Below, piece by piece: positions 2,831 to 49,166 of a stretch of DNA of 64,000 nt (position 1 is the stretch's first letter; every line of letters starts with the position of its first letter). Source of the stretch: Minisyncoccota bacterium (GTDB taxonomy: Bacteria > Patescibacteriota > Minisyncoccia > Phycocordibacterales > UBA5272). The notes beneath the pieces were generated by a model. It made no database searches. It saw nothing but the letters and a program-made list of their open reading frames with translations, and was not told the origin of the DNA. The stretch spans positions 1,860 to 65,859 of the forward strand of contig JAGORG010000002.1 in NCBI GenBank assembly GCA_018062965.1. Reading direction: 5' to 3'. The position numbers were made by a program, and so were the translations under genes.

Positions 2831-2845
2831 CATACACTAGAGAGA

Positions 2846-11200: not shown

Positions 11201-11877
11201 TCAATTGTCTTAAAGATTTCAAAGATTGCTTCTGCTCCAATACCTGCTTCGAAACATGTACCATACTTCATCGCATAACGATGGTAAGTGAGCTCATCAA
11301 AAATCTTCCACGGCTTGATTTCTTCGATTTCTTTCTTTGTTGCAGTCAAAAGTTCACGGAGCTTGTCCTGTGTCTTTTCATCACTTGCTGACTTTACTTT
11401 TGCCTTGAATTCAGAATCGAGGTTCGCAAGAATTTCTTCCTTTGCGGCCTGATTAACTGACTTTACAACATATCCGGCAAAGTACACCACCTTTTCTACG
11501 TCAGATACTGGCTGAGCCAAGATAAGAGCAATACGAGATGGAACTGTACGAAGGAACCAGATGTGAGCAACTGGAGACGCGAGTTCGATATGCCCCATTC
11601 GTTCACGACGAACGATAGACTTTGTAACTTCTACTCCACATTTTTCACAGATAATACCCTTGTAACGAATACGCTTGTATTTTCCACAGTAACATTCATA
11701 GTCCTTTTCAGGTCCAAAGATACGTTCGTCAAAAAGACCGTATCGTTCTGAACGTCCAGTACGGTAGTTGATCGTCTCTGGCTTCGTAACTTCACCGAAA
11801 CTCCATGAGCGAATTGCTTCAGGAGAAGCAACCTTGATCGCGAGAGCATCGAAATTGTTTGTGTCGATTGTTTTCAT
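8275..11877 (-). CDS. rpoC: DNA-directed RNA polymerase subunit beta prime
   Basis: 1200 aa. Contains the zinc-finger CX2C...CX2C and the NADFDGD catalytic motif. Confidence 0.95.
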
Positions 11878-11903: not shown

Positions 11904-14900
11904 TTATAGAGATGATTCACCGATTAATGGCTCTTCCATACCTTCTATCTTGCGCGGAACAACATCAAGCGATAGTCCACGGAGTGTATTCAACATCACC
12001 GTAAACGACGCAGGAGTGTTAGGTTCCTGAACATCTTCACCCTTGATAATAGAATCAAACGCAGCCGAACGTCCTACGATATCGTCAGACTTAACGGTAA
12101 GCATTTCACGCAAAATGTGTGATGCACCGTACCCTTCGAGAGCCCATACTTCCATTTCCCCAAAACGCTGACCTCCTCCTTGAGCCTTTCCACCAAGAGG
12201 CTGCTGTGTAATAAGAGAGTACGGACCGATAGAACGCATGTGAATCTTGTCTTCAACCATGTGATGCAGCTTCATAATGTACATGACACCAACGGCAGTT
12301 TCCTGATTAAATGCTTCACCTGTGCGACCATCAAAGAGCTGCATAGTTCCAGAGTCTTTGAATCCTGCCTTTACGAGTTCTTCTTTGATTTCCTTTTCAT
12401 TTGCACCCTGGAATGAAGGAACAACAGCCTGGTATCCAAGCGTGTCCGCTGCAAGACCCAAGTGCATTTCAAGAATCTGTCCAAGGTTCATACGTGATGG
12501 CACACCAAGCGGTGTAAGGATCATGTCAATTGGATTTCCTGCTTCGTCAAATGGCATTTCTTCAACTGGGAGGATTGTAGAGATAACACCTTTGTTTCCG
12601 TGTCGCCCTGCAAGCTTGTCTCCAACAGAGATGTTACGAATCTGCGCAACTTCGATATGAATACGCTTGATGATACCGCTTTCGAGGTTATCCCCTCGTT
12701 CACGTGAGAATACCTTTACACCGATGATACGTCCACGCTTTCCGTGATCAAGACGAAGAGATGAGTCCTTCACATCACGAACCTTTTCACCGAAGATAGA
12801 ACGAAGAAGTCGTTCTTCTGGAGTAAGTTCAGTTTCTCCCTTTGGAGTGATCTTACCTACGAGGATGTCTCCTGGGCGAACTTCAGCACCGATACGGATA
12901 ATACCGTCTTCGTCGAGGTTCTTAAGCTTTCCTTCACCAACGTTTGGAATATCGTGTGTTGTTACTTCAGCACCGAGCTTTGTATCACGTACGTTACATA
13001 CGAATTCTTCGATGTGGATTGAAGAGAACTTGCTGTTCTTTACAAGACGTTCTGAAAGAATGATGGCGTCTTCGTAGTTAGCACCATTCCATGACATGAA
13101 CGCTACACGGATGTTGTGACCGAGTGCAATCTGTCCATTGTCTGATGTTGCAGCATCTGCGAGCACCTGTCCTTTCTTTACCTTGTCTCCAAGAGAAACG
13201 ATTGGTCGCTGGTGGAATAGGTTAAACGCGTTAGTACGAGCAAAGTTGATAAGGTCATATGTATATTCCTTCTTGTCGTTTTTGATAACGATTTTCTTTG
13301 CGTCAACATATTTCACTTCTCCTGCATCTTCTGCGAGGATGAGGCGTCCGATGTGCTTTGCAGCTTCTGCTTCCATACCGGTAGCAACAACTGGAGCTTC
13401 TGGACACATAAGTGGCACTGATTGCTTCTGCATGTTTGAACCCATGAGTGCGCGAGTCGCGTCGTCATGTTCGAGGAATGGAATCATAGATGTCGCAACA
13501 GAAAACGCTTGGTTTGTCGCCACATCGATGTATTCGATTTCTTCACGATCAACAAGTGCTGGCTGTCCTGCTACACGAGCTTCTACCTGCTTGTTCACAA
13601 GCTTTCCATCTTCGTCGTATTCATTTCCTGCGTGAGCAATCGTATGACGTTCTTCTTCAAGAGCGTTCATGTATGTGATTTCCTTTGTAATCTTTCCTTT
13701 TTCTACCTTTACGTATGGAGTTTCGATAATACCGAAGTCGTTGATACGTGCGTAGTTAGAAAGACGCAAGATAAGACCGATGTTTGGACCTTCTGGAGTG
13801 TGGATTGGACACACACGACCGTAGTGTGATGTGTGCACGTCACGCACTTCAAAACCTGCTCGTTCACGTGTAAGACCTCCGGGACCAAGGGCAGATAACG
13901 TACGCAAGTGTTCTACTTCCGCAAGCAAGTTTTCCTGGTTCATGAACTGAGAAAGCTGGTTTGTTGTAAAGAATTCCTTGATACGAGCCTGAAGTGGTCG
14001 CTGGTTGATGATTGCGATTGGAAGTGTCGTATCAGTGTCGATAACAGACATCTTGTCCTGAATATTTCGCTTCATCTGCATCATACCTGTACGGATCTTT
14101 TGCGCCATCATTTCACCTACATAACGAACACGACGGCTTCCGAGGTGGTCGATATCGTCTTCTTCAGCATTAGGATTGCTGTTAAGTTCGATCATGTGAT
14201 TGATGATTTCAACCATATCTTCCTTTGAAAGCGTACGACGTGCGGCGTCTTTGTCTGTCTTTGCATCAGTTGGTTTGCCGAAACGCTTGTTGAAACGGAA
14301 ACGTCCAACAGGAGAAAGGTCATAACGCTCTGGTGAAAGGATAGAATCTACGTATTCCTTTGCGTTTTCTGGAGTAGCGAGGTCACCATCACGGAGACGC
14401 TTGTAAATTTCGATGTATCCATCATGGATAGTTTTGACATCATCACGTTCGATGAGTGCAGACATAAGCGCTTGAGCTTGTTCTTTTCCTTCAAATGCAG
14501 CACGAATAGACTCATCACTTGTGAGTCCCATAACACGAAGGAGTGCAATTACAGAGAATTTACGCTTCTTGTCGATACGAACATATACACCACCGTCTGC
14601 TTCTGTTCCGAGTTCAATCCACACACCACGTGAAGGAATGATTTTTGCACCAAAGTAACGCTTTCCTTTTGATTCTTCAGAATCAAAGAAAACACCGAAT
14701 GATCGGGCGAGCTGTGGAACAACTACACGTTCAACACCGTTGATGATAAACGTACCGTGAACCGTCATGAGCGGAAAGTCCGCCATGAAGATTTCTTGTT
14801 CCTTAATAGTATTTAGGATTTTGTTTGTGAGCTTTACACGAGCGCGAAGTGGAGCTTCGTAGGTAAGCTTGTTTTCCTTTGCGTAGACTTCGTCGTATTT

Positions 14901-16365: not shown

Positions 16366-16400
16366 AAATTGACTTTCTGTTGAGTTCGTGTTATAATAGA
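16366..16400 (+). promoter_or_regulatory. consensus-like sigma70 promoter TTGACT-17-TATAAT
   Basis: ttgactttctgttgagttcgtgttataat sits just upstream of the AGGAG and ATG at 16427. Confidence 0.5.
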
Positions 16401-16426
16401 AATATAGCTTTTACAGGAGAATTCTT

Positions 16427-16690
16427 ATGGCACACGCTATTGGAATGCTCGTCGGAGCATTCCTTATTTTGTATCTGTTTTACAGTTTCTGGTTTTCAGA
16501 CGATGAACCCCTTAGCTGGAAAACACTTCACCGCCCTCTCATGTGGATTTGGAGAGACACCTATGTCCACTCACCCGCCAGCTTCCGCAGACTCAAACCG
16601 AAGCTCAAAGTAAATGCATTGCTTGTTGTTCTTGGTTTGATTGTGGGTTGGGGCATGACTGACAGCATTCTCCAAACATTTGGACCATGA
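16427..16690 (+). CDS. small membrane protein (87 aa)
   Basis: Two hydrophobic helices with its own promoter and ribosome binding site. Confidence 0.5.
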   Translation: MAHAIGMLVGAFLILYLFYSFWFSDDEPLSWKTLHRPLMWIWRDTYVHSPASFRRLKPKLKVNALLVVLGLIVGWGMTDSILQTFGP

Positions 16691-16708
16691 AACCGCTTCG
16701 GCGGTTTT

Positions 16709-17302
16709 TTATTTAAACTGTTCTAGTTTTTTAAAATCTTCAAACATGACACCTCTCATGTTTGGGTTATACAACCCAACAGCGGGATGATAGAGCGGGA
16801 GCAATGCAACTTTTCCGTACCCAAAATCCCCTTCAAATAGCTCACCATGCATTTTGCTAATAGGTAACAGTTTATCTTCTATGCCTGCACGTTTAAAAAG
16901 ATAATTCATCGAATGCCGTCCAAGCATCACGATAACTTTTGGCTGAATGATTTCTATTTGTCTATCCAAAAATGGTGCGTATAGGGCTATCTCTTCAGGT
17001 GTTGGATCACGATTGTCTTGTGGTCTATCTTTTACAAGGTTTGCTATATAGACCTTTTCACGATCAAGATTGATTGACCCAAGCATTTCATCTAAGAGTT
17101 TCCCTGAGCGTCCACAAAATGGTCGAGCAGATTTGGCTTCTTGCTCTCCTGGCGCTTCTCCTACAAAAAGAATATGCGTATCGTGCGCCCCTTCTCCAAT
17201 AACAGGAACATAGCTATTCTCTGTGCGATAGGCATACAAGGGAGATGAAGTTAGGGCAAGCACTTCATCTCTGATTTGTTTCATTGCCTCTCGTTTATCC
17301 AT
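16709..17302 (-). CDS. uracil-DNA glycosylase, family 4
   Basis: Motifs GEAPGEQE and GRSGKLLDEML are typical of family 4 UDG. Confidence 0.8.
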   Translation of the reverse strand: MDKREAMKQIRDEVLALTSSPLYAYRTENSYVPVIGEGAHDTHILFVGEAPGEQEAKSARPFCGRSGKLLDEMLGSINLDREKVYIANLVKDRPQDNRDPTPEEIALYAPFLDRQIEIIQPKVIVMLGRHSMNYLFKRAGIEDKLLPISKMHGELFEGDFGYGKVALLPLYHPAVGLYNPNMRGVMFEDFKKLEQFK

Positions 17303-17334
17303 ACAGGTTAGTATATCAAACGAGACAAAGCTTT

Positions 17335-17817
17335 TTATAAGGCGCTTACGATGTTTACTTCTTGTGATGTGACACTATCGCCCTCACCAAAACTAAATGA
17401 TGCCTTAACCAAGCCACCTTTCAAAACCTCAGGCAGCCAAAACCTATCATCTGACCACATATCATCATATGGAATATCTGCAACCGCAAACCAAGCAGGT
17501 TTCATCTCTTCGCTTTCTGTTGGGGTTCCGGCATATTCGTCAGCAAAAAACACATGAACTAGTTGGTCCCACTCTGGTTTGTGTGGAAAGGTAAATGTAA
17601 GCTCTGCGACTTTGGACATCTCAGATACCGTGACACCAATTTCTTCTTGCGTCTCACGTACGACAGCATCTTTGATTGTTTCTCCCGATTCAGTTTTACC
17701 TCCAGTACCATTCCATCTCCCCGCTCCAAACCCCCGCTTTTTCATAGCAAGACATATATCTGTAACCACCCCACTTTCAGATGTCTTTATTAGAAAAAGA
17801 AGTGTTGTATCTCGCAT
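17335..17817 (-). CDS. NUDIX hydrolase
   Basis: Nudix box GGKTESGETIKDAVVRETQEEIGV. Confidence 0.8.
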   Translation of the reverse strand: MRDTTLLFLIKTSESGVVTDICLAMKKRGFGAGRWNGTGGKTESGETIKDAVVRETQEEIGVTVSEMSKVAELTFTFPHKPEWDQLVHVFFADEYAGTPTESEEMKPAWFAVADIPYDDMWSDDRFWLPEVLKGGLVKASFSFGEGDSVTSQEVNIVSAL

Positions 17818-17823
17818 GTTGTT

Positions 17824-18231
17824 TTATTTCCAAGCAGCCAACCAATCATTCATCATTTTTATTTCAGTTGTTTGTGCATTTATGATGTCATCGGCTAGCT
17901 TTTTTACTTCAGCGCGAGGATTAAGCAGAAGCACCTGTCGTGCCATTTCTACAGCCGCTTCATGATGAAGAACCATGTCTTTGAGGAACTGTTCTTCACT
18001 TGTAACCTTTCCCATCATGTATTTGTTTTGATGATGTCCATCTTTTTCGTTTAGAGAAAGCATGTGAGAACTCTTTGCTTTTGCTAGACGTTCTGGATAG
18101 TAGAGACCTATCATATCCATACCACTTGGAACAAGAAGTGAAAACGCATACATACCAGCCCCAAGTCCAATTGCGATACCAATAAACGTATAACGATTCA
18201 CATACGAACGAAATGATTGCATGATTTTCAT
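17824..18231 (-). CDS. DUF305-like protein with N-terminal transmembrane helix
   Basis: The C-terminal HHEAAVEMARQ...NDWL pattern matches DUF305. Start uncertain (the GTG at 18252 or the ATG at 18231). Confidence 0.6.
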   Translation of the reverse strand: MKIMQSFRSYVNRYTFIGIAIGLGAGMYAFSLLVPSGMDMIGLYYPERLAKAKSSHMLSLNEKDGHHQNKYMMGKVTSEEQFLKDMVLHHEAAVEMARQVLLLNPRAEVKKLADDIINAQTTEIKMMNDWLAAWK

Positions 18232-18290
18232 ATATAGTAAGTATACCACCACTCCTGGAGAGGTTGCATGTACTCAACGATATGTAGCCC

Positions 18291-18397
18291 TGGGTGGCAG
18301 ACATCTTTTAAAAAGTATTGCGCAAGCGGGCAGCTGAGCATGAGTGCATTTTCTAGCAAGAAAATGACACGTCTTTTTAAAAGATGTCTGCCACCCA
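18291..18397. repeat. 25 bp perfect inverted repeat around a 57 bp loop, upstream of the DUF305 gene
   Basis: tgggtggcagacatcttttaaaaag ... ctttttaaaagatgtctgccaccca. Confidence 0.6.
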
Positions 18398-18403
18398 GAA
18401 AGT

Positions 18404-18495
18404 AAAAACAAAAGCGGCGCCATAGGCTCCCGATTTCTTAGATTGTAATCAGTCTTTTGAAATCACAGTCCTGTAAGGGCGCCGCTTTTGTTTTT
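18404..18495. terminator. long hairpin (18 bp stem, 56 nt loop) downstream of the helicase gene; the loop carries a 47 nt core repeated at 60965
   Basis: aaaaacaaaagcggcgcc ... ggcgccgcttttgttttt. The stem is followed by a T-run on the minus strand. Confidence 0.5.
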
Positions 18496-18500
18496 AAAGA

Positions 18501-19808
18501 TTATCGATGATTTGGTACAAACGTGAGAGCATGACCCAACTTTGTTCCACGTCCTGTACGACCGATACGGTGAACGTATGTTTCGTAGTTATTTGGAATA
18601 TCGTAGTTGACCACAAGAGAGATATCTGAGATATCAAGCCCTCGCGCTGCAACGTCTGTTGCAATCACAACCTGCACACGTCCAGACTCAAGCGACTTCA
18701 CAGCACGCTCACGTTCACGGTTATGCATATCTCCGTGAAGAGCAAGTGCGTTAAACCCACGAGCCTTGAGTTCATCAGCGAGCTTATCAACGTGTCGCTT
18801 CATTTCGCGGAAGATAAGTACTTTTGAATATTCTGGCTTGTTAAGAATCTCATGAAGGGCTTCCAACTTGTCAGCATCGCTAGTTGCACGGATAACATCC
18901 TGCATCACAGACGCAGCTGTATCACGAGTTTTGATAGATACGGTTACTGGATCATTCAAGAAGTCACTCACAAGACGCTTAATCTCTGGAGAAAATGTCG
19001 CAGAGAAGAAAAGTCCTTGCTTTGCCTTTGGCATTGCTCCGAGGATAGAGCGCATATCGTCAATGAATCCCATATCAAGCATACGATCTGCTTCATCAAG
19101 TACGATTGAGTCAAAGTATGACATGTTGATCTTGCCGCGTTCGATAAGATCCTTTACACGTCCTGGAGTTCCGATAACAGCATGAACACCAAGTTCAAGT
19201 TCTTTTATCTGACGCATGATTGGAGCACCACCCACACAAGCAACAGAAAAGAGTTTCATGCCGCGAGTAAAGTTGATGAACTCTGCTTCTACCTGAAGCG
19301 CAAGCTCGCGAGTAGGAGTGAGCACCATGATCTTCTGATCATTGTTTGCTACGAGTTTATTGATAAGTGGAATAAGAAATGCTGCAGTCTTTCCAGTTCC
19401 AGTTGAGGCGATACCTACAACATCTTTACCAGAAAGCGCTACAGGAATAGCTTGGTCCTGAATAGCAGATGGATGGATAAGACCCTTTGCGGTAAGGTTT
19501 GCAGACAATGTTTCAGCAATACCAAAATCCATAAATGAATTTGTTGGTGTATATGTGTCTGTTTCGCTTACTGCGACTTCTTTATTGATAAATAGCTTTT
19601 CATCGATGAAGTCCTTGCGGAAACCCTTCTTTGGATTAAACGGCTTTGCAGCTCCTCCAGAACGAGAACCGAATCGTCCACGTGAAGAACCTCCACGAGA
19701 AAATCCACCTTCGCGACGAGGTGATGAAAATGAGCGGCCACGTGATGGACGATCTGAGAAACGAGAACGTGAGCCAGTATCTGACCCACCAGTTGTAATG
19801 GTGTACAT
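18501..19808 (-). CDS. DEAD-box ATP-dependent RNA helicase with N-terminal RG/RS-rich region
   Basis: Q-motif, Walker A motif GTGKTAAF, DEAD box, SAT and HRIGRTGR. The start is ambiguous: it may extend to 19880. Confidence 0.85.
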   Translation of the reverse strand: MYTITTGGSDTGSRSRFSDRPSRGRSFSSPRREGGFSRGGSSRGRFGSRSGGAAKPFNPKKGFRKDFIDEKLFINKEVAVSETDTYTPTNSFMDFGIAETLSANLTAKGLIHPSAIQDQAIPVALSGKDVVGIASTGTGKTAAFLIPLINKLVANNDQKIMVLTPTRELALQVEAEFINFTRGMKLFSVACVGGAPIMRQIKELELGVHAVIGTPGRVKDLIERGKINMSYFDSIVLDEADRMLDMGFIDDMRSILGAMPKAKQGLFFSATFSPEIKRLVSDFLNDPVTVSIKTRDTAASVMQDVIRATSDADKLEALHEILNKPEYSKVLIFREMKRHVDKLADELKARGFNALALHGDMHNRERERAVKSLESGRVQVVIATDVAARGLDISDISLVVNYDIPNNYETYVHRIGRTGRGTKLGHALTFVPNHR

Positions 19809-20144
19809 AAATGTAGTTTGTATTAAGGTTAATGTGATTATTTGCGCTCGACTTCTTTTCGATGAAGACTCTTCTATCAAGAAAAGATAGATGTATGGTT
19901 ATCGCAACGCGTCACATAAACTGACTACACAAGGATATCCATAAGGAAATAATATGACTATTCTAGCAGATAAGATATGTTTTGTCAATGTTAGGATTTT
20001 TAAAATACATAATACAGATTCTTTTCTTTTTACTTTCCCGTCGAACTAAACGGCATACTTTTTTGCTAAAAAGTTGCCTCCCTCTCAACTCGCCAGTTTC
20101 CGAGAGTTAGTTCTCACGGGAAAGTGGAGTTTGTTACTATACAA

Positions 20145-20172
20145 AATAAAAAACCCGCCGAAACGGGTTTTC
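20145..20172 (-). terminator. hairpin aaacccgccgaaacgggttt preceded by an A-run
   Basis: Sits downstream of the minus-strand gene ending at 20194. Confidence 0.5.
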
Positions 20173-20193
20173 CGCCGTTGGGCGAGTTGCAGT

Positions 20194-20652
20194 TCAGTGC
20201 ACAGTCTGGATGCGCTTCTGGGCTTGCGCCACGAAGCAGTTCACCTGACCTTCACCTTCCAGCAAACAGAACGCGAGGAACGCGATACTGTCTGCGTCTT
20301 CCGTGGAAGGCGAACCCCACGCCGACTTTTTGGCCGTCTCAGCGAGAAGCTGGCGCTGACCGATGAGTTCGCGGTAGAAGTCGTCGACGTTGTTGTCGTC
20401 GCCGACGTTCTTCACGAGCTCGGGCAGGAGTGCCACGACCTTGGTCATCGCCGTTTTGCCGAAGATCCGCGAGAAGCAGGCCTCCAGCATTTCGGGAGTG
20501 ACGTCAGGGCGCAAGCGCACGGGTTCGTCCCAGTTGGTCATATAGGTCTCGTGGACCATCCTGAACACCTTCGATGCCAACTGCCTGTGAGGGAAGAAGG
20601 TCACGTCGGTGGGGTTTTGACGGAACTGGGAGAAGTTTTCAAAGAAGTTCAT
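20194..20652 (-). CDS. hypothetical protein (152 aa), start MNFFENF; GC-elevated
   Basis: AGGAGG lies 5 nt upstream of the ATG. Has its own promoter and terminator. GC is clearly higher than in flanking core genes. Confidence 0.55.
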   Translation of the reverse strand: MNFFENFSQFRQNPTDVTFFPHRQLASKVFRMVHETYMTNWDEPVRLRPDVTPEMLEACFSRIFGKTAMTKVVALLPELVKNVGDDNNVDDFYRELIGQRQLLAETAKKSAWGSPSTEDADSIAFLAFCLLEGEGQVNCFVAQAQKRIQTVH

Positions 20653-20703
20653 AGACCCTCCTCTACGGTTAGTGGCGGGATTGCCACAGTCTTGAACATA
20701 TAA

Positions 20704-20732
20704 AATATAGCACACTATTATGTAAAAGTCAA
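20704..20732 (-). promoter_or_regulatory. near-consensus sigma70 promoter TTGACT-17-TATATT
   Basis: The minus strand reads ttgacttttacataatagtgtgctatatt. Confidence 0.5.
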
Positions 20733-20761
20733 GTATGTAAGCCTATACCTACAAGGTATTT

Positions 20762-20793
20762 AAAAATAAAAAAACCGCCGGTGAGGGCGGTTG
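20762..20793 (-). terminator. hairpin aaccgccggtgagggcggtt preceded by an A-run
   Basis: Same style as the 20145 terminator. Confidence 0.5.
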
Positions 20794-20817
20794 TGGTTGT
20801 CTGACCGGCGCGGTCGA

Positions 20818-21111
20818 TCAGGCGGCAACGGGTTCGTCTTCTGCGACGAGACCTTCTTCGCCGTAGAGGAAGAACTGCGCGCCGGACTTGCTGTTCTTGC
20901 GGTATTCCGCGAGCGCCATCAGACCGGCGGCCTTGGTTTGGATGCTGCCCTGCATCAGGTCGACGTTGCCGTCCGGCACATCGTCAACGGTCTGCGGAGG
21001 CTTCGCACCCGGCGGCAGGCCACCAAAGATGAGGATGACAAACTTGTCGGCAGAGTTCTGGTCGGGACGGGCCTGGAAGACACCATCTTTCGTGTTGCGA
21101 TTGTTGTCCAT
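20818..21111 (-). CDS. hypothetical small protein (about 97 aa), high GC
   Basis: The ORF has its own promoter and terminator. Start taken at MDNNRN; an alternative ATG lies at 21165. Confidence 0.45.
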   Translation of the reverse strand: MDNNRNTKDGVFQARPDQNSADKFVILIFGGLPPGAKPPQTVDDVPDGNVDLMQGSIQTKAAGLMALAEYRKNSKSGAQFFLYGEEGLVAEDEPVAA

Positions 21112-21182
21112 GTCTGCTCCTTTTGTAGCAAATGTCCGTCTGGGCAATACGCCAGCTGAAAACATGAATGAACGAACAGAAT

Positions 21183-21209
21183 AGTATAACGAATTTAAAA
21201 TAAAGTCAA
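21183..21209 (-). promoter_or_regulatory. sigma70-like promoter TTGACT-15/16-TATACT
   Basis: The minus strand reads ttgactttattttaaattcgttatact. Confidence 0.4.
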
Positions 21210-21239
21210 GTTGTTTTTTAAAAACTAGCTGTGTTTAGA

Positions 21240-21270
21240 AAATAAAAAACCGCCGGTGAAGGCGAGTTTT
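21240..21270 (-). terminator. hairpin aaccgccggtgaaggcgagtt preceded by an A-run
   Basis: Third copy of the aaaataaaaaaccgcc-type terminator. Confidence 0.4.
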
Positions 21271-21274
21271 GTGC

Positions 21275-21658
21275 TTAGTCACTGTTATGTTTTCGTGATT
21301 TGAGTACGAGTGCTTCATAACAGAAGACGGCACTTGATAGAAACATACCTATCAAGTAAAAGTGAACCACTCCGGTTGTGGTCATAAAGAACCAGCCAAG
21401 ACCAACGGGGCTCCACAGGAGAACCATGCGCGCAGCGATTGCACGCGCTGTTACTTTCACTCTTTTGAAATTCAAAAGCAAGAAAGCACCGGCGATGCAA
21501 AACCAAATGTAGAGCGACGTATACAGCATATCAACTGCAAGTTCTACATCACTCATTGTTGGTTCTGCTGTAAGACCAGCGATAAGCCATGTAGCGACCC
21601 AAACAAGACCATGGAACACGAATGCAAAACCGAGACTTTTCAGATAAATCATTTTCAC
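21275..21658 (-). CDS. small integral membrane protein (127 aa, about 4 TM helices)
   Basis: Hydrophobicity pattern. Promoter-like TTGACT lies upstream near 21686-21716. Confidence 0.55.
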   Translation of the reverse strand: MKMIYLKSLGFAFVFHGLVWVATWLIAGLTAEPTMSDVELAVDMLYTSLYIWFCIAGAFLLLNFKRVKVTARAIAARMVLLWSPVGLGWFFMTTTGVVHFYLIGMFLSSAVFCYEALVLKSRKHNSD

Positions 21659-21782
21659 ATCTCCATTCCACCACAGCGGCAGATTTATATGTGAATCTAC
21701 TATTTATTTATAAAAAGTCAATACGTACTCCTACTTTGTAAGCTGTATCACACACTCATGCTCATAGGGTAGATAAAATACA

Positions 21783-21816
21783 AAAATAAAAAAACCCGCT
21801 GGATTGCGCGGGTTTA
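21783..21816 (-). terminator. hairpin aaacccgctggattgcgcgggttt preceded by an A-run
   Basis: Fourth stereotyped terminator. Confidence 0.45.
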
Positions 21817-21830
21817 GCGCGGTCGGCGGG

Positions 21831-22232
21831 TTACAGACCTGACTCAGAATAGCAAGCTGAACTTGGGTTCTTCACGGTCAGCCTCCGTACCGTCTTGATA
21901 AGTTTACCGCGCAGTTGGCCAGGGTTTGTGTCCAGGAACTCGGTAAAGGTAACAACTTCACCCGTAGAACGAAAGCAGGTTTGTTTACCGCGCTTGAAGA
22001 CGGCGACACCCTTAGCTTTACCATTTCCACTATATGAAGGAATTGCCTCTTCATTCCAGCAGGGTTCAAACCTGACCAATTCCTTGGTCTTTTCGTTCCA
22101 CACCACGGCGGCGCAGGCACGCTTGGTCCAGAACACTTGGTTGAGACTGTTCTCGTCCTTTTTCAGATCGCCAGCATAGCTAACGACCATCGCAAAAAAC
22201 AAGAACGAACTGATAATCAATTTCTTCAGCAT
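21831..22232 (-). CDS. secreted hypothetical protein (133 aa) with signal peptide
   Basis: N-terminal signal-like sequence MLKKLIISSFLFFAMVVSYAG. AGGAG ribosome binding site. Confidence 0.55.
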   Translation of the reverse strand: MLKKLIISSFLFFAMVVSYAGDLKKDENSLNQVFWTKRACAAVVWNEKTKELVRFEPCWNEEAIPSYSGNGKAKGVAVFKRGKQTCFRSTGEVVTFTEFLDTNPGQLRGKLIKTVRRLTVKNPSSACYSESGL

Positions 22233-22295
22233 AGTCTTCTCCTCTAAGGTTGACCGATTTGTATAAGAGCTGAGGCACGAAACCTCATCTCTTAT

Positions 22296-22324
22296 ACTAT
22301 AGCATATATTTACATAAAAGTCAA
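22296..22324 (-). promoter_or_regulatory. near-consensus sigma70 promoter TTGACT-17-TATAGT
   Basis: The minus strand reads ttgacttttatgtaaatatatgctatagt. Confidence 0.5.
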
Positions 22325-22356
22325 GTACTTGTTGTGTTTATTTATAGACATACGAG

Positions 22357-22457
22357 CCAATAAACCCTTTTGAATCAATTCTCGGAGAATGGCGATTCGA
22401 GAGGGAAATGCTTTTTCAGCAGAAAAAGACATTGTTTGATTCAAAAGGGTTTATTGG
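22357..22457. repeat. 22 bp perfect inverted repeat around a 57 bp spacer
   Basis: ccaataaacccttttgaatcaa ... ttgattcaaaagggtttattgg. Confidence 0.55.
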
Positions 22458-22465
22458 GTAGAGAG

Positions 22466-23212
22466 CTACTTTGTAAGCTGTATCACACACTCATGCCCAT
22501 ATGGGTCTTTGAGAAACGAGTAGCTTGTAAAGCCGCATTCTTTTGCTAGCTCTTCGATTTTTTCACGTTGAGTGATATCGAATTCAAGATATAAAACTCC
22601 ATCATCTTTGAGAAACTCTTTCGCGCGCTTCAAAACTTCTGTGTGAAAATAAAATCCTTCTTCTTTGTCAAAAAATGAAAGTGGTTCTTCGGAAGACAAT
22701 TCTTTCATCACTTCTTCTTTCATAGACTGCGGCACATACGGTGGAACTGCAAAGATAACATCATATGTCCCTGCTGCCCCCTCCCATGTATCCCCTATGA
22801 GTACGCGTGTACGAAGTTTCTTGATGTTGTTTCTGATGATTGAGTTTTCTATCCCAGGCTTAAGCTTTGGGTCAAGCTCAATAAAATCAACAGTAGCTTC
22901 CGGAATGTTTTTTGCAACTGCAAGCCCGACACAACCAGAACCTGAAAAAAGATCAAGTGTACGAAGTACAAAGAGTCGTTTGGTTGCGAGCGTATGTTCG
23001 ATTGCTTGTTTGACCCAGAACTCTGTTTCAGGTCGTGGAATCATCGGACGCAATGATAAGTCTACTTTTGCAGAAGCAAATACAACTTCACCCAGGAGAT
23101 ACTCGAGTGATTCACCTGCTGTCATCTTTGCAACGTCAGCCAAAAATGCTGGTGTTTCTATTCCTTTATACTTTTCTTTGCGGAGTCGCTCTACTTTGTC
23201 TTCAAATTTCAT
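22466..23212 (-). CDS. prmC: release factor glutamine N5-methyltransferase (PrmC/HemK-like)
   Basis: SAM-binding motif LDLFSGSGCVGLAV and substrate motif VPPY (an NPPY variant). Confidence 0.75.
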   Translation of the reverse strand: MKFEDKVERLRKEKYKGIETPAFLADVAKMTAGESLEYLLGEVVFASAKVDLSLRPMIPRPETEFWVKQAIEHTLATKRLFVLRTLDLFSGSGCVGLAVAKNIPEATVDFIELDPKLKPGIENSIIRNNIKKLRTRVLIGDTWEGAAGTYDVIFAVPPYVPQSMKEEVMKELSSEEPLSFFDKEEGFYFHTEVLKRAKEFLKDDGVLYLEFDITQREKIEELAKECGFTSYSFLKDPYGHECVIQLTK

Positions 23213-23226
23213 ATATACATACTACG

Positions 23227-23535
23227 CTATATAGCCAACATAGCAATAAAGAGAACAACAAAAACTGGTAACACAAGTCCAATCGGGAGAAGCGCAGCAA
23301 TACAAAGCGCCCAAAAAGGTAGCTCTGTGATGAGACTACCGAGAAGAAGAATACCAAGTGGCGGAGCAAAGCGCTGAAAGGTAGACATAACAAAAGCGAA
23401 TCCTTTCAGCCATTCGATAAGTGCGCAAATCACAAGCCACGTAAACATACAGACCATATATATGAACCGCACAACAAGGGCAAGAAGTGTGTATGATGTT
23501 TTTAGGGCGTAATACATATGTATGAAAGTACCCAT
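23227..23535 (-). CDS. small membrane protein (102 aa)
   Basis: Hydrophobic ORF. No ribosome binding site inspected. Confidence 0.4.
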   Translation of the reverse strand: MGTFIHMYYALKTSYTLLALVVRFIYMVCMFTWLVICALIEWLKGFAFVMSTFQRFAPPLGILLLGSLITELPFWALCIAALLPIGLVLPVFVVLFIAMLAI

Positions 23536-23606
23536 CCTATCACACGAAGCAGATACTTGGTACTCTGTGGTACACTCTCATACATTATTTCTAAATCTTT
23601 TACTGC

Positions 23607-24794
23607 ATGGCTCAATCTTTTTCTCCGAAGAAATACTTTTCAAAAATTTTTGCACACGAACTTGTTTCAGAACTCATAGGAGAGCATGGTGGTCAGGCTT
23701 TTTTTGAGATCAACGACCAAACCCCTCGAAAACTAGCTGTCTCAATGATGGAAGATGCTATAAAGTCACTCGACACAGAACAAAGGCTTGCAGTTACTAA
23801 AGACCTTTCATATATAGCGTCTATCACAAGCGCCCACACATCATCTCTTGGAAAAAAACTATTCTTGACCACAACTGGAAAAGAGTTCGAACCAGAAGTC
23901 GAATGTGCAAGCGACCATGATGTAGTGTTGTACCTGTACCTACGCCACCCGGACATCACAGACAAGCTTGCGTTTTTGTATCCATTTTATGCTTCAAAGA
24001 GTTACATCAGCTATGAAGCTAAAAAAGTTGATCACGTAGAAGTAGACATGAAGCTCACAGAACTTGCTCGGGAGTTTACTCGTTTAGCAAACAAAGACGA
24101 CAATGCTACAGAGCAAGAGATGAATCATATCTTTATCGATGACGTGCTCTATATCGAATCACAGTTCCAAGGAGCATATGACAGATCTGAAAAAATAGAC
24201 CCGAAAACTGGAGAGATAGACAGAAAGCATGTCACTCGCCGTATCGCATCTGTACGTATTGCGTATATTCCCGAAGAAGAAGTTGTCCTTGTTGCTGGGA
24301 CTGTTGGGAAAGAAACGAAAATGCTTTTTATGGATACATTCCTCCGTGTTGTAACTGGAGGTGGGTATGAAGAAAAAATAGAGATGTACGACCTCACACC
24401 ACTTAAAAATCTTTCACTGGATTTTACTCAGTACAACAAGGGTACCCCTTTTATCAAAGCATCTATCAAGTCTGTGACACTAAGCTATGCTGAAGGTAAA
24501 AAGAAGTTGCGACTATCGCTCCCTACATCTCGTGACCAAGCTGGTATGCAAGCACTCAAAGACACTCTAGAGGAGCTAGGACTCACAGATAAGTTCTCTT
24601 CTTTTGAAATTGTGAATATGACATTTGGGTTTATATTCCAAAACAAAGAAAAGCAAGACAAGAGTGTAAACGTAAACTGCTCTATCTCTAAAGCAAAAGC
24701 TTCACTGTGTCCACTTTTTGAATACGAACGGTATACAAAATCTATTCTCAAAAACGCCGGTGTGTACGAAGGGTTTAAGGTGTTAGAAAAATAA
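23607..24794 (+). CDS. hypothetical protein (395 aa), no recognisable domain
   Basis: Long ORF followed by a clean terminator. Confidence 0.6.
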   Translation: MAQSFSPKKYFSKIFAHELVSELIGEHGGQAFFEINDQTPRKLAVSMMEDAIKSLDTEQRLAVTKDLSYIASITSAHTSSLGKKLFLTTTGKEFEPEVECASDHDVVLYLYLRHPDITDKLAFLYPFYASKSYISYEAKKVDHVEVDMKLTELAREFTRLANKDDNATEQEMNHIFIDDVLYIESQFQGAYDRSEKIDPKTGEIDRKHVTRRIASVRIAYIPEEEVVLVAGTVGKETKMLFMDTFLRVVTGGGYEEKIEMYDLTPLKNLSLDFTQYNKGTPFIKASIKSVTLSYAEGKKKLRLSLPTSRDQAGMQALKDTLEELGLTDKFSSFEIVNMTFGFIFQNKEKQDKSVNVNCSISKAKASLCPLFEYERYTKSILKNAGVYEGFKVLEK

Positions 24795-24812
24795 AACCAC
24801 CAATACAAAATA

Positions 24813-24848
24813 AAAACACCTCAGTTTATCTCTGAGGTGTTTTTATTT
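24813..24848 (+). terminator. rho-independent terminator (acacctcag..ctgaggtgt plus T-run)
   Basis: Perfect 9 bp stem followed by tttttatttt. Confidence 0.65.
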
Positions 24849-24852
24849 TGTG

Positions 24853-24926
24853 CGCAGTCGATGGGATTTGAACCCACGACCCCCGCCGTGACAGGGCGGT
24901 GCTCTAACCAGCTGAGCTACGACTGC
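24853..24926 (-). tRNA. tRNA-Asp (GTC)
   Basis: Cloverleaf read by hand. Anticodon loop CTGTCAC. T-arm GTGGGTTCAAATCCCAT. Confidence 0.8.
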
Positions 24927-24981
24927 ATATTTATTTGTGTCTACACATTCTAGCAGAAAACTAGAATCCGTCTAACACGGG

Positions 24982-25055
24982 TGTCGGCGGGTGGGAACGA
25001 TCCACCGACCTTGGGCTTATGAGTCCCACGCTCTAACCAACTGAGCTACGCCGAC
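24982..25055 (-). tRNA. tRNA-Met/Ile2 family (CAT anticodon) with an atypical T-loop
   Basis: D-arm TAGCTCAGTTGGTTAGAGC. Anticodon loop CTCATAA. The T-loop reads ATCGTTC instead of the usual TTCGAAT. Confidence 0.6.
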
Positions 25056-25089
25056 ATATATTCTTTTAATCTATCACCTCATAAGCCAA

Positions 25090-25141
25090 CTGACTATAGC
25101 GCTTATGTGTGCCCGCGCGTAGCAAACTGAGCTACGCTGAC
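25090..25141 (-). pseudogene. degenerate partial copy of the 5' half of the adjacent tRNA-Met
   Basis: Begins GTCAGCGTAGCTCAGTT and includes a CATAAG loop, but cannot be folded into a cloverleaf. Confidence 0.4.
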
Positions 25142-25152
25142 ATATTTTAACC

Positions 25153-25188
25153 TTTAAGCGCCGCCTCACTACGTGGGCGGCGCTTAAA
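25153..25188. other. strong hairpin aagcgccgcc..ggcggcgctt inside the tRNA cluster
   Basis: 10 bp GC stem. Confidence 0.5.
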
Positions 25189-25216
25189 CCAAAACCTTGT
25201 CACGTAGTTTACTTGT

Positions 25217-25285
25217 TGCGGAGACTGGAATCGAACCAGTGTCCCGAGGTTATGAGCCTCGTGAGTTACCTCTACTCTACTCCGC
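25217..25285 (-). tRNA. tRNA with CAT anticodon (Met or Ile-lysidine type)
   Basis: Anticodon arm CGAGGCTCATAACCTCG. T-arm ACTGGTTCGATTCCAGT. One acceptor-stem mismatch. Confidence 0.65.
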
Positions 25286-25353
25286 TATATTATAGGACAC
25301 ACACTCTTTTTGAGTCAGAATATAATACCACACCATAGAACAAACTACAAGGA

Positions 25354-26730
25354 CTATTTTATCGCCTTCAATTCCCTAAACACCGATTCGTAGAGTGCGT
25401 AGACTCGTTTTGCTTCATGTTCTCCTAGAGAGAAATCTGATCCGTCATGAGCGATACGATTACGAACTTTATGCGCATCCCATGCAAGCTGTATCGTCTT
25501 GAAGCTCGCAGACTGAAGCATTTCTCCAACATCTGCCCCCTGGTATCCTTTTTCAGCCAAAACCTCGCGCAGCATATTATCTGCTTCAAGAATACCGATT
25601 CTCCACAATGGTTCGGCTTGGCTTGTCATATACCCTTGGATGATCGCCCACTTTGGATGATCATTGAAGTCAGCAGCTGTTGGTGCATGGATAGTGAGAC
25701 CTTCACCAATCGGAAGCCCAGCAATACCCGCCGGCATTTCGTCTGTATCTGAATGATGTGGTGCATGTCCACCGTGATGGCGGTCATCTCCATGACCAAA
25801 GTGATGTTCATAATGTTCAAGCGCATTTGAAAACTCCAAGAACCAGCGAATGATGACGTATACCAAAAAGATGAGCCCGAGCACCGCGACAAGCGACAAG
25901 ACATCTGACATAAATGAAAGCACAGGATTGTGAATTGCTGTTTGTGCCCCATTAAGCTGCCCAGACAGATCAAAAGCTCCGTTGCTGTTATTGTTTATAT
26001 CAAGCGGATATGTATCCATATTATCTGGAATACCATCACCGTCTGTATCTTTCATGCGAGGGTTCGTACCAAGTGTAGCCTCCATCATATCACTAACCCC
26101 ATCCCCGTCTGTATCTAATCCTCGTGAAGAAATGCCTGCATCAAGTGGCGCCTCATCTCGTCCGTCTAGAACTAAATCTCTATCTGAGTCGTTGTTAAGA
26201 GGGTTAGTGCCACGAGCAAGCTCAACACCATCAGATAAGCCATCTCTGTCAGTATCTCTATGTTTAGGATCCATGCCATGAGTGATTTCATAACTGTCTG
26301 GAACACCATCTCCATCACTATCTTTTGGACCTACACCAAAAAGATCTCGTACCTTATCCCAAAAGGAATAGTCAACTTCGTATCGCTCTTTGAGCTCTGC
26401 CTGAGTCAAGTTATACGGATCATACGGCTGACCGTCAGCGACATTTGGTATACCATCTCCATCACTATCAGGAGACTGTATTCCCAAGCTTTCAAGTATA
26501 CGCTGCCACAATGTCAGACTTGTATCAGCTGCAGGGACAACAGCATCTTTTTGTGCAAAGTACGCATCAAACCAACCTCGATCTCGTAGACCATCAAATT
26601 CTCTCTCTGCATGCTTTGCTATATAGTCGTCTGGATTTGTACGAAGAATACCAAAAAGCCATACATACTTTATCCAAAGAAGTACGTCATAGACTCTATT
26701 AAAAAGATAGTCGATGGAAAGCGAGTACAT
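25354..26730 (-). CDS. membrane protein with TSP3-like Asp-rich calcium-binding repeats, His-rich linker and DUF4145/HEPN-like C-terminal domain
   Basis: Six DxDxDG-type repeats (DSDGDGIPNVAD and similar). Transmembrane helix VLSLVAVLGLIFLVYVII. HHFGHGDDRHHGGHAPHH segment. C-terminal ...AHKVRNRIAHDG, resembling the DUF4145 R-x-N-x-x-A-H motif. Confidence 0.65.
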   Translation of the reverse strand: MYSLSIDYLFNRVYDVLLWIKYVWLFGILRTNPDDYIAKHAEREFDGLRDRGWFDAYFAQKDAVVPAADTSLTLWQRILESLGIQSPDSDGDGIPNVADGQPYDPYNLTQAELKERYEVDYSFWDKVRDLFGVGPKDSDGDGVPDSYEITHGMDPKHRDTDRDGLSDGVELARGTNPLNNDSDRDLVLDGRDEAPLDAGISSRGLDTDGDGVSDMMEATLGTNPRMKDTDGDGIPDNMDTYPLDINNNSNGAFDLSGQLNGAQTAIHNPVLSFMSDVLSLVAVLGLIFLVYVIIRWFLEFSNALEHYEHHFGHGDDRHHGGHAPHHSDTDEMPAGIAGLPIGEGLTIHAPTAADFNDHPKWAIIQGYMTSQAEPLWRIGILEADNMLREVLAEKGYQGADVGEMLQSASFKTIQLAWDAHKVRNRIAHDGSDFSLGEHEAKRVYALYESVFRELKAIK

Positions 26731-26739
26731 TACGTACTA

Positions 26740-28161
26740 TTAGTATACCTTTTCAAAATCTCGTCCGATAGTGAATAGTGCACCTTCGTGAAAATGTGGA
26801 GCAATAAGTTGAAGTGAAAGAGGTAGACCGCTCTCTGTTTTACCTGACGGGATAGAGATAGCTGGAACACCAACAATGTTTACCGGCACCGTAAAGATAT
26901 CTGCCAAATACATGGCGAGTGGGTCGCTTGATTTTTCACCTATCGCAAATGCAGGGATTGGAGATGTCGGGAGGGCGATAGCGTCAACATCTTTAAACAC
27001 CTGAGCAAATTCTTCTTGGAGCATTTCTCGAACGAGATTGGCTTTATTGTAATACGCATCATAATACCCTGATGAAAGCACATAGGTGCCAAGCAATACA
27101 CGGCGGCGAACCTCATCTCCTAGCCCGTCAGTTCGTGTCTTGAAGTATCCACTAATCATACTGTTTGCTTTATCTTCATCTTTTAGAGACAACCCATATC
27201 GGATACCATCATAGCGCGCCATGTTTGAAGAGATTTCTGCAAACACAACAACATAATATACAGAAAGTGACTTTTCTAGATGCTCTATATTCACGTCAAC
27301 AATTTCATACCCATCTGTCTTTAACTTCTCAAGTGATGCTTCAAAGTTTTTCAAAACCTCTGCATCGATTCCTTCACGTCGAACAAATGACCATGGCACA
27401 CCGATTTTCTTTTTGAGATCTGCATGAGTTGTTTTGATCCCTAGATCTACAGAGGTACCATCAAGAGCATCTTTTCCTTTGATGATATCAAACACGGCTT
27501 CCACGTCGTCTATGGTATTTCCAAATGGACCAATCTGATCCAATGATGAACCCATCGCCATGAGACCATAACGTGACACTGCACCATATGTAGGCTTGAG
27601 CCCTACGATGCCACAAAATGATGCCGGCTGACGAATTGAACCACCAGTATCTGACCCGAGCGAAATAGGAACACCACCGTATGCAACAACAGCAGCAGAC
27701 CCGCCAGATGAACCACCAGCTACACGAGTTGTGTCATGAGGGTTTTTGGTAACACCAAAAGCTGAATTCTCTGTTGAACCCCCCATGGCGAATTCATCCA
27801 TGTTTGCACGTGCAAGTAAAATCGCTCCAGCATCTTTTAGTTTTTGTACAACAGTTGCATCATATGGAGAGGTATACTTAGCGAGAATCTTTGATGCAGC
27901 AGTAGCACGCTCGCCTTCTACGACAATGTTATCTTTAAGAACAATCGGTACTCCGGTGAGTAGAGTTCCAGTTCCTGATGCAAGCATACTTTTTGCTCGC
28001 GCAATCTGAGACTCGATCAGATCATCTGAATACATACCTAAAATTGCATGTATCTCTTCGTCTTTTTCGCTGATAGTCGCATGAGCTTCTTCAACAAGCG
28101 CTTCCACCGTTAGAGAACCGTTTTTAAAATCTTCCTGAATTTCTTTGAGAGTTTTTTTCAT
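26740..28161 (-). CDS. gatA: Glu-tRNA(Gln) amidotransferase subunit A
   Basis: Amidase signature GGSSGGSAAVVA and a Ser-cisSer-Lys triad context. Confidence 0.9.
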   Translation of the reverse strand: MKKTLKEIQEDFKNGSLTVEALVEEAHATISEKDEEIHAILGMYSDDLIESQIARAKSMLASGTGTLLTGVPIVLKDNIVVEGERATAASKILAKYTSPYDATVVQKLKDAGAILLARANMDEFAMGGSTENSAFGVTKNPHDTTRVAGGSSGGSAAVVAYGGVPISLGSDTGGSIRQPASFCGIVGLKPTYGAVSRYGLMAMGSSLDQIGPFGNTIDDVEAVFDIIKGKDALDGTSVDLGIKTTHADLKKKIGVPWSFVRREGIDAEVLKNFEASLEKLKTDGYEIVDVNIEHLEKSLSVYYVVVFAEISSNMARYDGIRYGLSLKDEDKANSMISGYFKTRTDGLGDEVRRRVLLGTYVLSSGYYDAYYNKANLVREMLQEEFAQVFKDVDAIALPTSPIPAFAIGEKSSDPLAMYLADIFTVPVNIVGVPAISIPSGKTESGLPLSLQLIAPHFHEGALFTIGRDFEKVY

Positions 28162-47423: not shown

Positions 47424-47678
47424 AACTCTGTTGCGGAGAGAGTGGGATATTCGGTCACAAAACTACCTCGCGTTGCTCGAAGTAGTTTCGCGACCCCTAT
47501 TCGAATCCCACCGAAAAGACATGCAGATATCTTTTCTTCTCTCCACCAAATAAAAATGGCCCTTACGGGCTCATTTTTAAACTGGCGGTGAATATGGGTT
47601 AAGTGCCCACACTCTCAAGCGCTATAAGGATATTTTAGAGGAATTTTGAGAACTTATTTGAGGCACTCGGGTCGAGTG

Positions 47679-48053
47679 TTATTTACTGAGGTGTTCGTGG
47701 ATAAATTGCAGTTTGTCTCCGTTTCGAATAATTACATTTGTTCCCCGACCGCTTCCGCTCTTTTGTACCCCATCAACTATTCCCGACCAATTAAAGGTAT
47801 AGGTAATAGAAGCTGAATTTGAATCGGCGACTATGATCTTGAGGTCGGAAAGTGAATAAGTCTCGTTTTTAATTGAGCCCCAAGTGTTCTCAAAGGCTTT
47901 TTGAATAGCTTCAATACCTACAAAATCACCGTCCGTAAACCGGTATATGGCTTCAGAATGAACCAAACCAATAACATTAGAAAATACGTGGGAATTTGTA
48001 ACATCCTCGTACTTTTTTAAGAATTCTTTTATTTCTGATTCTGTGATGTTCAT
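47679..48053 (-). CDS. NTF2-like (SnoaL/DUF4440-like) small protein
   Basis: Size and alternating pattern are typical of the NTF2 fold. Weak. Confidence 0.4.
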   Translation of the reverse strand: MNITESEIKEFLKKYEDVTNSHVFSNVIGLVHSEAIYRFTDGDFVGIEAIQKAFENTWGSIKNETYSLSDLKIIVADSNSASITYTFNWSGIVDGVQKSGSGRGTNVIIRNGDKLQFIHEHLSK

Positions 48054-48214
48054 GGATTTTTTTAGGTACTCGGGTCTAGTTCGACACTTTTTTATTTTGG
48101 CGGAGATGGTGAGTTAGGTGCCTATAGGGTTAATCCGTGTAAGGTTATTCTAGCATCTTTGGCTTAGTCAGTTTGAGGATAGTGGGTTGGATAAATATAT
48201 TTCAAATGTTGACT

Positions 48215-48469: not shown

Positions 48470-48602
48470 AGTAGTTAGTATAACAAAAGAGTTTGATGAG
48501 TATATATTTTTGGGAACCTTCGTAGAAGAATTATCTACGAAGATAAGGAGTTAAAGCCACTTGCTCAATAAAATGTTAAAATGTGAACTTTGAATTTACT
48601 TT

Positions 48603-49103: not shown

Positions 49104-49166
49104 TTAAGATGGTTTTTAAATTCGTTTATTTTCCTACGCTCATCGAGCCCCAGAACCTAAACGACT

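Follow-up and report, generated by a model that had tools for sequence, protein, structure and literature searches.

The window analyzed here, 64,000 nucleotides of contig JAGORG010000002.1 from a Minisyncoccota bacterium (assembly GCA_018062965.1), contains an array of four small genes, G1 to G4, on the minus strand, read from position 22340 to 20140. The array sits between two conserved core genes of the Candidate Phyla Radiation (CPR, or Patescibacteria): a small methyltransferase gene upstream and a DEAD-box helicase gene downstream. We think it likely that in this CPR genome, which is of the Paceibacteria/Parcubacteria type, the locus serves as a recombination hotspot where self-contained modules, each running from its own promoter to its own terminator, were stacked successively.

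Variable content between two conserved genes

A search with the methyltransferase retrieves metagenome-assembled genomes (MAGs) labelled Parcubacteria, Paceibacterota, Nomurabacteria and Saccharibacteria, which are all CPR names. The methyltransferase and helicase genes stay adjacent in 18 related species (17 from a genome scan, plus L046; related loci carry L numbers here), with the order reversed in L031. The gap between them, measured in 17 species, ranges from 151 bp (L027) to 4384 bp (L016). The 26 cargo proteins in these gaps form 22-23 BLASTP families. Most have no Pfam domain, and the domains seen are those of Rce1-like proteases, a GC-rich DapD/HopJ fusion and a GDSL lipase, along with a weak, sub-threshold receiver match. 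When the gaps of the 18 species were searched with tblastn for homologues of G1 to G4, only a G2 homologue in L046 was found. The same flanks thus hold different accessory content across genomes, as is expected of a horizontal gene transfer (HGT) hotspot flanked by core genes. An earlier interpretation made from the letters of the DNA alone, the sequence-only reading, had called the array hypervariable and accessory rather than an operon. The gap lengths, the number of cargo families and the polymorphism of units between strains all agree with this. That reading would have been abandoned if relatives carried the same four genes in the same order; this arrangement was looked for, and the order was not kept.

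Comparison with two related contigs separates the array into layers. L055, which is 92-94% identical to the window, is an empty site for both G1 and the G3-G4 block, and L004 lacks only G1, so individual units do differ between strains. In both contigs, the methyltransferase stop codon leads straight to GAGTAC-TTGACTTTTT, the promoter of G2. The window has 735 extra nt, which consist of a structured element (Y-A, described below), the G1 module and a duplicate of the final 39-41 nt of the methyltransferase gene. Both copies of this 3' end align over 39 nt with 95% identity (two mismatched positions) at a spacing of 735 nt, and no duplicates of the methyltransferase 3' end were found in the gaps of relatives. 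The second insertion is the G3-G4 block. The direct repeat at its ends, CGGCGG(G)TTTTTTATTTT, is a terminator half-stem with its T tail. In L055, the G2 terminator instead runs directly into ...GTATAGTAACAAAC and a second copy of the structured element, Y-B.

The G3-G4 block has moved or been lost very recently. The window and L004 show no differences over 21250-20002, with flanks that differ by 3-10%. The G2 genes of L004 and L055 are identical (378/378), yet only L004 has the block, and the G2 of the window is 92.6% identical to both (7.4% divergent). An identical block in diverged G2 backgrounds, together with its absence beside an identical G2, therefore indicates very recent gain or loss and exchange between lineages. 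At the L004 junction, a terminator variant of the L055 type is joined to the G3-G4 block within 12 nt, which argues against a strain or assembly chimera. The junctions are also reproduced across many independent assemblies from different samples.

G2 has a different history. A homologue with 45% identity occupies the same position in L046, where the flanking proteins are 82-85% identical to those of the window and the order is methyltransferase, promoter, G2 homologue, terminator, Y element and DEAD promoter. More distant relatives of G2 sit at other loci. Judging from these sequences, G2 is the older resident of the locus, and it looks vertically inherited. The idea of a homogeneous set of equivalent cassettes was therefore dropped: G2 is older, G3 and G4 travel as one block, and only G1 and the G3-G4 block are recent.

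Signals, composition and products of the modules

A Shine-Dalgarno motif and a promoter-like site of the pattern TTGACT(TT)-16/17-TAnnnT precede each of the four genes, and a terminator-like hairpin with a T run follows each (Table 1). The G1 and G4 promoters have a TG-extended -10. Consensus-type sites were thus located for all four genes, as the sequence-only reading had claimed. These signals support G1 to G4 as independently signalled units, not an operon, and we infer that they are used in vivo. The terminators of G3 and G2 share 85% identity over 34 nt. Four of the eight exact copies of TTGACTTT in the 64 kb fall within the array, as do four of the window's seven GSGG(K)TTTTT terminators, within 2.2 kb. 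The motif cttgactttt, said to recur four times, occurs only twice exactly and reaches four occurrences when one mismatch is allowed.

A fifth self-contained unit was found outside the array at 16369-16708 (+). It has a TG-extended TTGACTTT-17-TATAAT promoter and a CGGCGGTTTTTTATTT terminator, and it encodes a small membrane ORF (open reading frame) of 87 aa at 16428-16691. Since this unit has the same -35 and terminator style, the signals of the array are the normal house style of the genome, and their stereotypy is not a trait of the array as had been proposed. The unusual trait is density: four monocistronic units stand in a row, and the rest of the window is mostly operonic.

The coding sequences (CDSs) of the array differ in composition. 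GC content at third codon positions (GC3) is 0.57 for G1, 0.43 for G2, 0.755 for G3 and 0.80 for G4, compared to a mean of 0.343 (standard deviation 0.049, maximum 0.50) for the 49 other genes of the window. The corresponding z-scores are 4.6, 1.8, 8.4 and 9.3. The G3-G4 stretch is also the top tetranucleotide outlier among 229 scan windows (z = 4.1). Two members had been said to exceed their surroundings in GC, and by both measures these are G3 and G4, which are foreign. Foreign composition does not extend to all of the repeated units, as G2 is near-native. The intergenic DNA that holds the promoters, 5' untranslated regions (5' UTRs) and terminators has a native-like GC of 0.37-0.46. The second-strongest tetranucleotide outlier of the window lies elsewhere, at 47576-49225. 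It is AT-rich (GC about 0.30), contains small minus-strand ORFs of 124, 84 and 166 aa, and may be a further accessory insertion.

The G4 module was found in seven chromosomal neighborhoods, this locus included. In the six other contexts, its homologues lie next to MnmA/UvrB, L27/PHP, AlaRS, CYTH, an alpha/beta hydrolase and a GIY-YIG gene, and they keep a TTGAC(T/A) promoter, the same 5' UTR and the terminator, with a GC3 of 0.56-0.82. Where it could be traced furthest, nucleotide homology to the window's module is bounded by the -35 hexamer itself (L039 and L040) and by the terminator T tail (L039 and L170); for the remaining four contexts its start lies within 20-71 nt downstream of the -35. 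Universal flanking repeats around the G4 modules were considered and rejected, as only L169 has a marginal repeat of 23 nt. Upstream signals are also reused with other genes. The promoter and entire 5' UTR of G1 (~95 nt to the ATG) are homologous to those of the first cassette of L014, at about 80% by eye from the alignment, and the two CDSs are unrelated (E > 1). In L019 and L046 too, unrelated genes are preceded by homologous promoters that lie right behind the methyltransferase stop. This indicates that expression "platforms" and coding parts are recombined.

The four proteins have no match in Pfam, NCBIfam, PADLOC or PHROG; the sequence-only reading had stated a lack of recognizable domains for two of them. 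G1 has an N-terminal hydrophobic, signal-like segment and four Cys. In G2, three hydrophobic segments are clear and a fourth stretch, judged by eye, is weaker, which makes three to four transmembrane segments. The secreted protein that had been predicted is thus consistent with the N-terminus of G1, and of the predicted four-transmembrane protein three segments are clear and the fourth is only weak. G1 and G3 are ORFans, with only their own 99-100% identical copies among 5.8 billion proteins. The family of G2 is small (13 representatives), and that of G4 has 22 clusters with 55-90% identity, all from metagenomes or MAGs. The G4 product is predicted to be all-helical, and structure comparison gave no informative match for it. 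The single-sequence structure model of G1 (pLDDT 44) was unusable. A match of G4 to TALE-like (transcription activator-like effector) repeat proteins was rejected because its E-value was inflated by the summing of many weak repeat matches; the structure model gives no support, and neither a significant match to the 33-35-aa repeat nor a helix-loop-helix repeat structure was seen.

The G4 reading frame is backed by substitutions biased to the third position (15/2/29 by codon position versus L170), and the long ORF antisense to G4 is broken in L039 and L040. In the gene calls of GCA_020047435.1, this antisense ORF of 168 aa (window 20197-20703, plus strand; L001 6043-6549) replaces G4; high GC3 keeps the opposite strand open. 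GC-rich modules of the hotspot are misannotated by gene callers. No relatives were found for G1, G3 and G4 in INPHARED (tblastn), for G3 and G4 in PLSDB (tblastn), or in IMG/VR with a G4 profile. PADLOC found no defense genes or domains in G1 to G4 or in a neighboring 395-aa protein, and the phage-defense or host-interaction role proposed for the array genes is speculation. Our guess from localization features and turnover is that the products are non-essential envelope or interaction factors, with G1 secreted, G2 in the membrane, and G3 and G4 cytoplasmic.

Table 1. Coordinates of the array, its modules and flanks, and of structured repeats (positions in the window unless an L number is given)
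Feature	Position	Strand	Description
Methyltransferase gene	22466..23212	-	small SAM-dependent (S-adenosylmethionine), MTS/Cons_hypoth95-type (Pfam); upstream flank of the array and border of the hotspot
Direct-repeat copy 1	22466..22506	-	functional 3' end of methyltransferase gene
Direct-repeat copy 2	21731..21769	-	remnant of methyltransferase 3' end; adjoins G2 promoter just as at the empty sites
G1 module	21770..22356	-	promoter 22296-22324, 5' UTR hairpin 22261-22297, CDS 21831-22232, terminator 21792-21815 plus T tail
G1 promoter-like site	22324-22296	-	TTGACT-17-TATAGT
G1 ORF	21831-22232	-	133 aa
G1 terminator-like hairpin	21815-21792	-	with T run
G2 module	21250..21730	-	promoter 21694-21721, CDS 21275-21652, terminator 21250-21265
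G2 promoter-like site	21721-21694	-	TTGACT-16-TAGATT
G2 ORF	21275-21652	-	125 aa from ATG; 127 aa from GTG at 21658
G2 terminator-like hairpin	21265-21250	-	with T run
G3-G4 block	20161..21256	-	1096 nt extra relative to empty site L055; flanked by 18-nt direct repeat
G3 module	20773..21209	-	promoter 21181-21209, CDS 20818-21111, terminator 20773-20792
G3 promoter-like site	21209-21181	-	TTGACT-17-TACTAT
G3 ORF	20818-21111	-	97 aa
G3 terminator-like hairpin	20792-20773	-	with T run
G4 module	20138..20732	-	promoter 20704-20732, conserved 5' UTR, CDS 20194-20652, terminator 20148-20173 plus T tail
G4 promoter-like site	20732-20704	-	TTGACT-17-TATATT
G4 ORF	20194-20652	-	152 aa
G4 terminator-like hairpin	20173-20148	-	with T run
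DEAD-box helicase gene	18501..19988	-	CDS 18501-19880; promoter 19960-19988; long conserved 5' UTR; downstream flank
Y-A	22357..22457	+	three-way junction, 22-bp perfect outer stem; fold z-score -8.3; covariance model 97.8 bits; part of G1 insertion
Y-B	20030..20128	-	just upstream of DEAD promoter; fold z-score -5.2; 107 bits
Y-C	18297..18390	+	downstream of DEAD gene; 26-bp perfect outer stem including flanks; 43.6 bits
Z repeat	L014 ~11170-11290		
Z repeat	L015 ~5885-6010		
Z repeat	L019 ~10885-11010		
Z repeat	L029 ~12140-12400		two tandem copies
Z repeat	L033 ~2715-2835		

The Y element and neighboring features

Y-A and Y-B, each ~100 nt long, bracket the array in inverted orientation. 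They share the core CTCGGARAMTGGCGAKTYGAGAGGGA and differ in their outer stems. With a covariance model, even without filters, only three Y copies were found in the window. Y-A is missing from L004 and L055. Upstream of the DEAD promoter, a Y element occurs at the same place and in the same orientation in 11 related species, and in L039 an inverted Y pair surrounds the G4 homologue (4806-4904, minus strand; 5577-5676, plus strand). A pattern scan of metagenomes of the Joint Genome Institute gave at least 120 loci, and the covariance model found 103 copies in 80 of them (L049-L128). The element is widespread in metagenome contigs of CPR type. Across copies, 90.5% of cells are paired compared to 47-55% in slid controls, and double changes occur in 33 of 34 pairs, both in an alignment that was fitted to the model. 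The outer stem stays paired, though nearly every copy has its own stem sequence. No matching family for Y was found in Rfam 15, and Rfam gave only sub-threshold hairpin look-alikes on the array.

We regard Y as a structured intergenic repeat like the repetitive extragenic palindromes (REPs) and bacterial interspersed mosaic elements (BIMEs), new as far as the tools used show. [quoted passage not shown] It is unlike them in being a three-way junction of ~100 nt and in having no conserved terminal inverted repeats for transposase recognition. Such conserved repeats, a feature of MITEs, are lacking because the outer stem varies in sequence while staying paired. No target-site duplication is evident at Y-A. 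Y was also considered as a docking site for cassettes. This was rejected, as Y pairs in metagenomes flank genes of native composition or nothing, most G4 contexts have no Y, and most copies do not follow a terminator. We hold a role of Y as a cassette recombination site to be unlikely.

Other repeats occur near the helicase gene. The loop of its terminator hairpin contains a ~61-nt sequence (18412-18471) with an 88% identical inverted copy 42 kb away (60966-61025), and this sequence is another small dispersed repeat. A second structured family, the "Z" repeat (~115 nt; CATTAGTAATTTTAGCGA...AAAATAACTAATG), is found immediately downstream of the helicase gene in a number of related species; the window lacks it at this position. 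The ~150-nt 5' UTR of the helicase gene (TTATTTCCTTATGGATATCC...GTGTAGTCAG; window 19809-19960, minus strand) is conserved in L014, L020, L021 and L046 and is possibly a regulatory leader. On the other side of the array, a 395-aa protein (window 23607-24794, plus strand) lies beside the methyltransferase in most relatives, with 30-74% identity, and has no match in Pfam, NCBIfam, PADLOC or PHROG. Farther away, ARAGORN called a tRNA-Ser with the anticodon ACT at 53199-53288 (-), beside a tRNA-Ser(GCT); a serine tRNA with A34 is unusual in bacteria.

Origin of the array and comparison with known systems

In the hotspot reading, the ancestral state would be methyltransferase, promoter-G2-terminator, Y, and promoter-DEAD. 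Next, the 1096-nt block with the two foreign, GC-rich modules G3 and G4 would have been joined at the T tail of the G2 terminator, leaving the 18-nt direct repeat. Last, the 735-nt unit of Y-A and the G1 module would have inserted 39-41 nt before the end of the methyltransferase gene. Since the inserted unit duplicated this end segment, the gene remains intact. Each module would combine one small ORF with a sigma-70-type promoter, a Shine-Dalgarno site and an intrinsic terminator, and with this complete set of signals it should be expressible at any landing site, as phage morons are. The G3-G4 block would very recently have passed from one lineage to another, or dropped out of one, among lineages whose G2 genes are about 7% different. 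The most likely route would be recombination after DNA uptake, with conserved flanks, terminator tails and promoter/5' UTR platforms as short homologies; Patescibacteria are reported to have competence and pilus genes and to show frequent HGT (PMC12455944). We infer both the direction of each event (gain or loss) and the recombination mechanism.

Several observations weigh against this explanation. A scan for promoter consensus matches overall gave 24 sites compared to 23.4 expected from shuffles, which is no enrichment. Gain and loss cannot be polarized at the strain level, and L055 could have lost G3-G4 via the 18-nt repeats. These repeats belong to a functional terminator, so some of their similarity could be convergent. 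A clear long target duplication is seen only for G1, and thus no single uniform insertion mechanism is demonstrated; flanking repeats are also absent from four of the six G4 contexts. The coding status of G1 and G3, which lack homologues, rests on signals and codon-position composition. Finally, the related loci derive from MAGs and short metagenome contigs.

The same data bear on other explanations. A dedicated site-specific system resembling an integron, in which Y elements and/or terminator tails would be sites for a recombinase acting in trans and modules would be excised as circles and re-inserted, is unlikely. A circle junction would join ...GGCGGGTTTTTTATTTT to CTAAACACAGC, or the G1 terminator tail to the methyltransferase end and Y-A. 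Such a system would account for the direct repeats that flank both recent insertions, for the sharp boundaries of the G4 module and for Y-A traveling with the G1 unit. The inverted Y copies that bracket the array and the L039 homologue of G4, and the location of all three Y copies of the window within 4.2 kb around the hotspot, fit it as well. However, no recombinase was found in the Pfam-annotated ~10 kb (window 16466-26745; the rest of the 64 kb was not scanned), and the units have their own promoters, unlike integron cassettes. No Y lies between G1 and G2, G2 and G3, or G3 and G4. Five of the six G4 contexts are without Y (four by model and one by eye; the sixth was not examined), and four of the six have no flanking repeat. 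Y-B is orthologous and conserved upstream of the helicase gene even where the gap is free of cargo (L026). With the native-composition genes, or nothing, inside the metagenome Y pairs, this points to a general REP/BIME-like repeat. A further reading, which we hold unlikely, is a "plug-and-play" cassette economy in the CPR, with modules as the unit of exchange, joined at terminator tails and platforms, and Y as a recombination or insulation site; it would be a dedicated capture system distinct from integrons and morons.

Duplication of a gene's 3' end around inserted DNA is the classical footprint of integrase-mediated insertion. The array could therefore be the remnant of a degraded prophage or integrative element whose morons and cargo genes survived the loss of structural and integrase genes, with the 39-41-nt repeat as the former attL/attR. 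The moron-like architecture and foreign composition would agree with this. We nevertheless find it improbable, as only about 0.7 kb and one small gene lie between the repeats, and the G3-G4 insertion is outside the repeat pair at a different junction. Searches of PHROGs, INPHARED and IMG/VR gave no phage-like proteins, and what relatives carry at this position is small cargo of unrelated kinds, not pieces of a prophage. Very improbable is the view that these are ordinary, vertically inherited small genes, with GC-rich codons due to selection (e.g., for high expression) and polymorphism due to metagenome assembly errors. The promoter and terminator style, which is the norm of the genome, and the apparent vertical inheritance of G2 would suit it. 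Against it, the junctions recur in many independent assemblies from different samples and are precise and bounded by repeats at empty and filled sites. A GC3 of 0.76-0.80 is 8-9 standard deviations from the 49 window genes, including those of rpoB/rpoC size, and 17 related species with the flanks retained lack the four genes.

Members of the CPR, with their very small and streamlined genomes, are regarded as host-dependent, and little is known of the ways in which they take up and try out new genes. The array is an example, resolved to the base pair with empty and filled sites, in which foreign ORFans arrive with native-style signals, stack and spread between lineages. Should this hold more generally, gene flow in the CPR would have promoter-to-terminator modules as a basic unit, and with the Y element there would be a structured nucleic-acid motif that is both new and widespread.

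The modules most resemble phage morons, the independent transcription units of HK97/HK022-type phages (Cumby, Davidson & Maxwell 2012, PMC3594210). As with morons, one small gene has its own promoter and factor-independent terminator (identified here in the DNA sequence), is inserted between genes that are adjacent in relatives, differs from its neighbors in GC, and can occur as the same module in different genomic contexts; the cargo of morons has an accessory function. Extra DNA of deviant composition is seen for G1, G3 and G4 (empty sites L004 and L055; GC3 z-scores of 4.6-9.3) and not for G2. Unlike morons, which lie within a phage or prophage, these modules lie in a chromosomal neighborhood of CPR core genes without phage homology. 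Several are stacked in tandem at one hotspot, and expression from a repressed prophage is not the rationale.

Chromosomal integration hotspots or genomic islets of the type described by Oliveira, Touchon and Rocha are reportedly flanked by conserved core genes. The locus is like them in that one pair of core genes encloses accessory content that varies between genomes and is rich in ORFans, with turnover by recombination in the flanks. In contrast to typical hotspots, it is very small (0-5 genes, 0.15-4.4 kb), each unit is monocistronic with complete signals, the junctions lie at terminator tails and a gene 3' end, and there are no mobile-element genes. Integrons and CALINs (clusters of attC sites lacking integron integrases) share with it a tandem row of small genes that are for the most part orphans and vary in composition, with repeats as its bounds and hairpin-forming elements nearby. 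It is unlike these in that the ~10 kb with annotation around the array (window 16466-26745) showed no intI, each gene has its own promoter and terminator, and no attC-like site follows each gene, with Y only at the ends of the array. A limited literature search found no descriptions of such modules or of the Y element in the CPR. The locus is therefore made of known kinds, an HGT hotspot and moron-like modules, in a form that is new in the CPR, together with an undescribed structured repeat.

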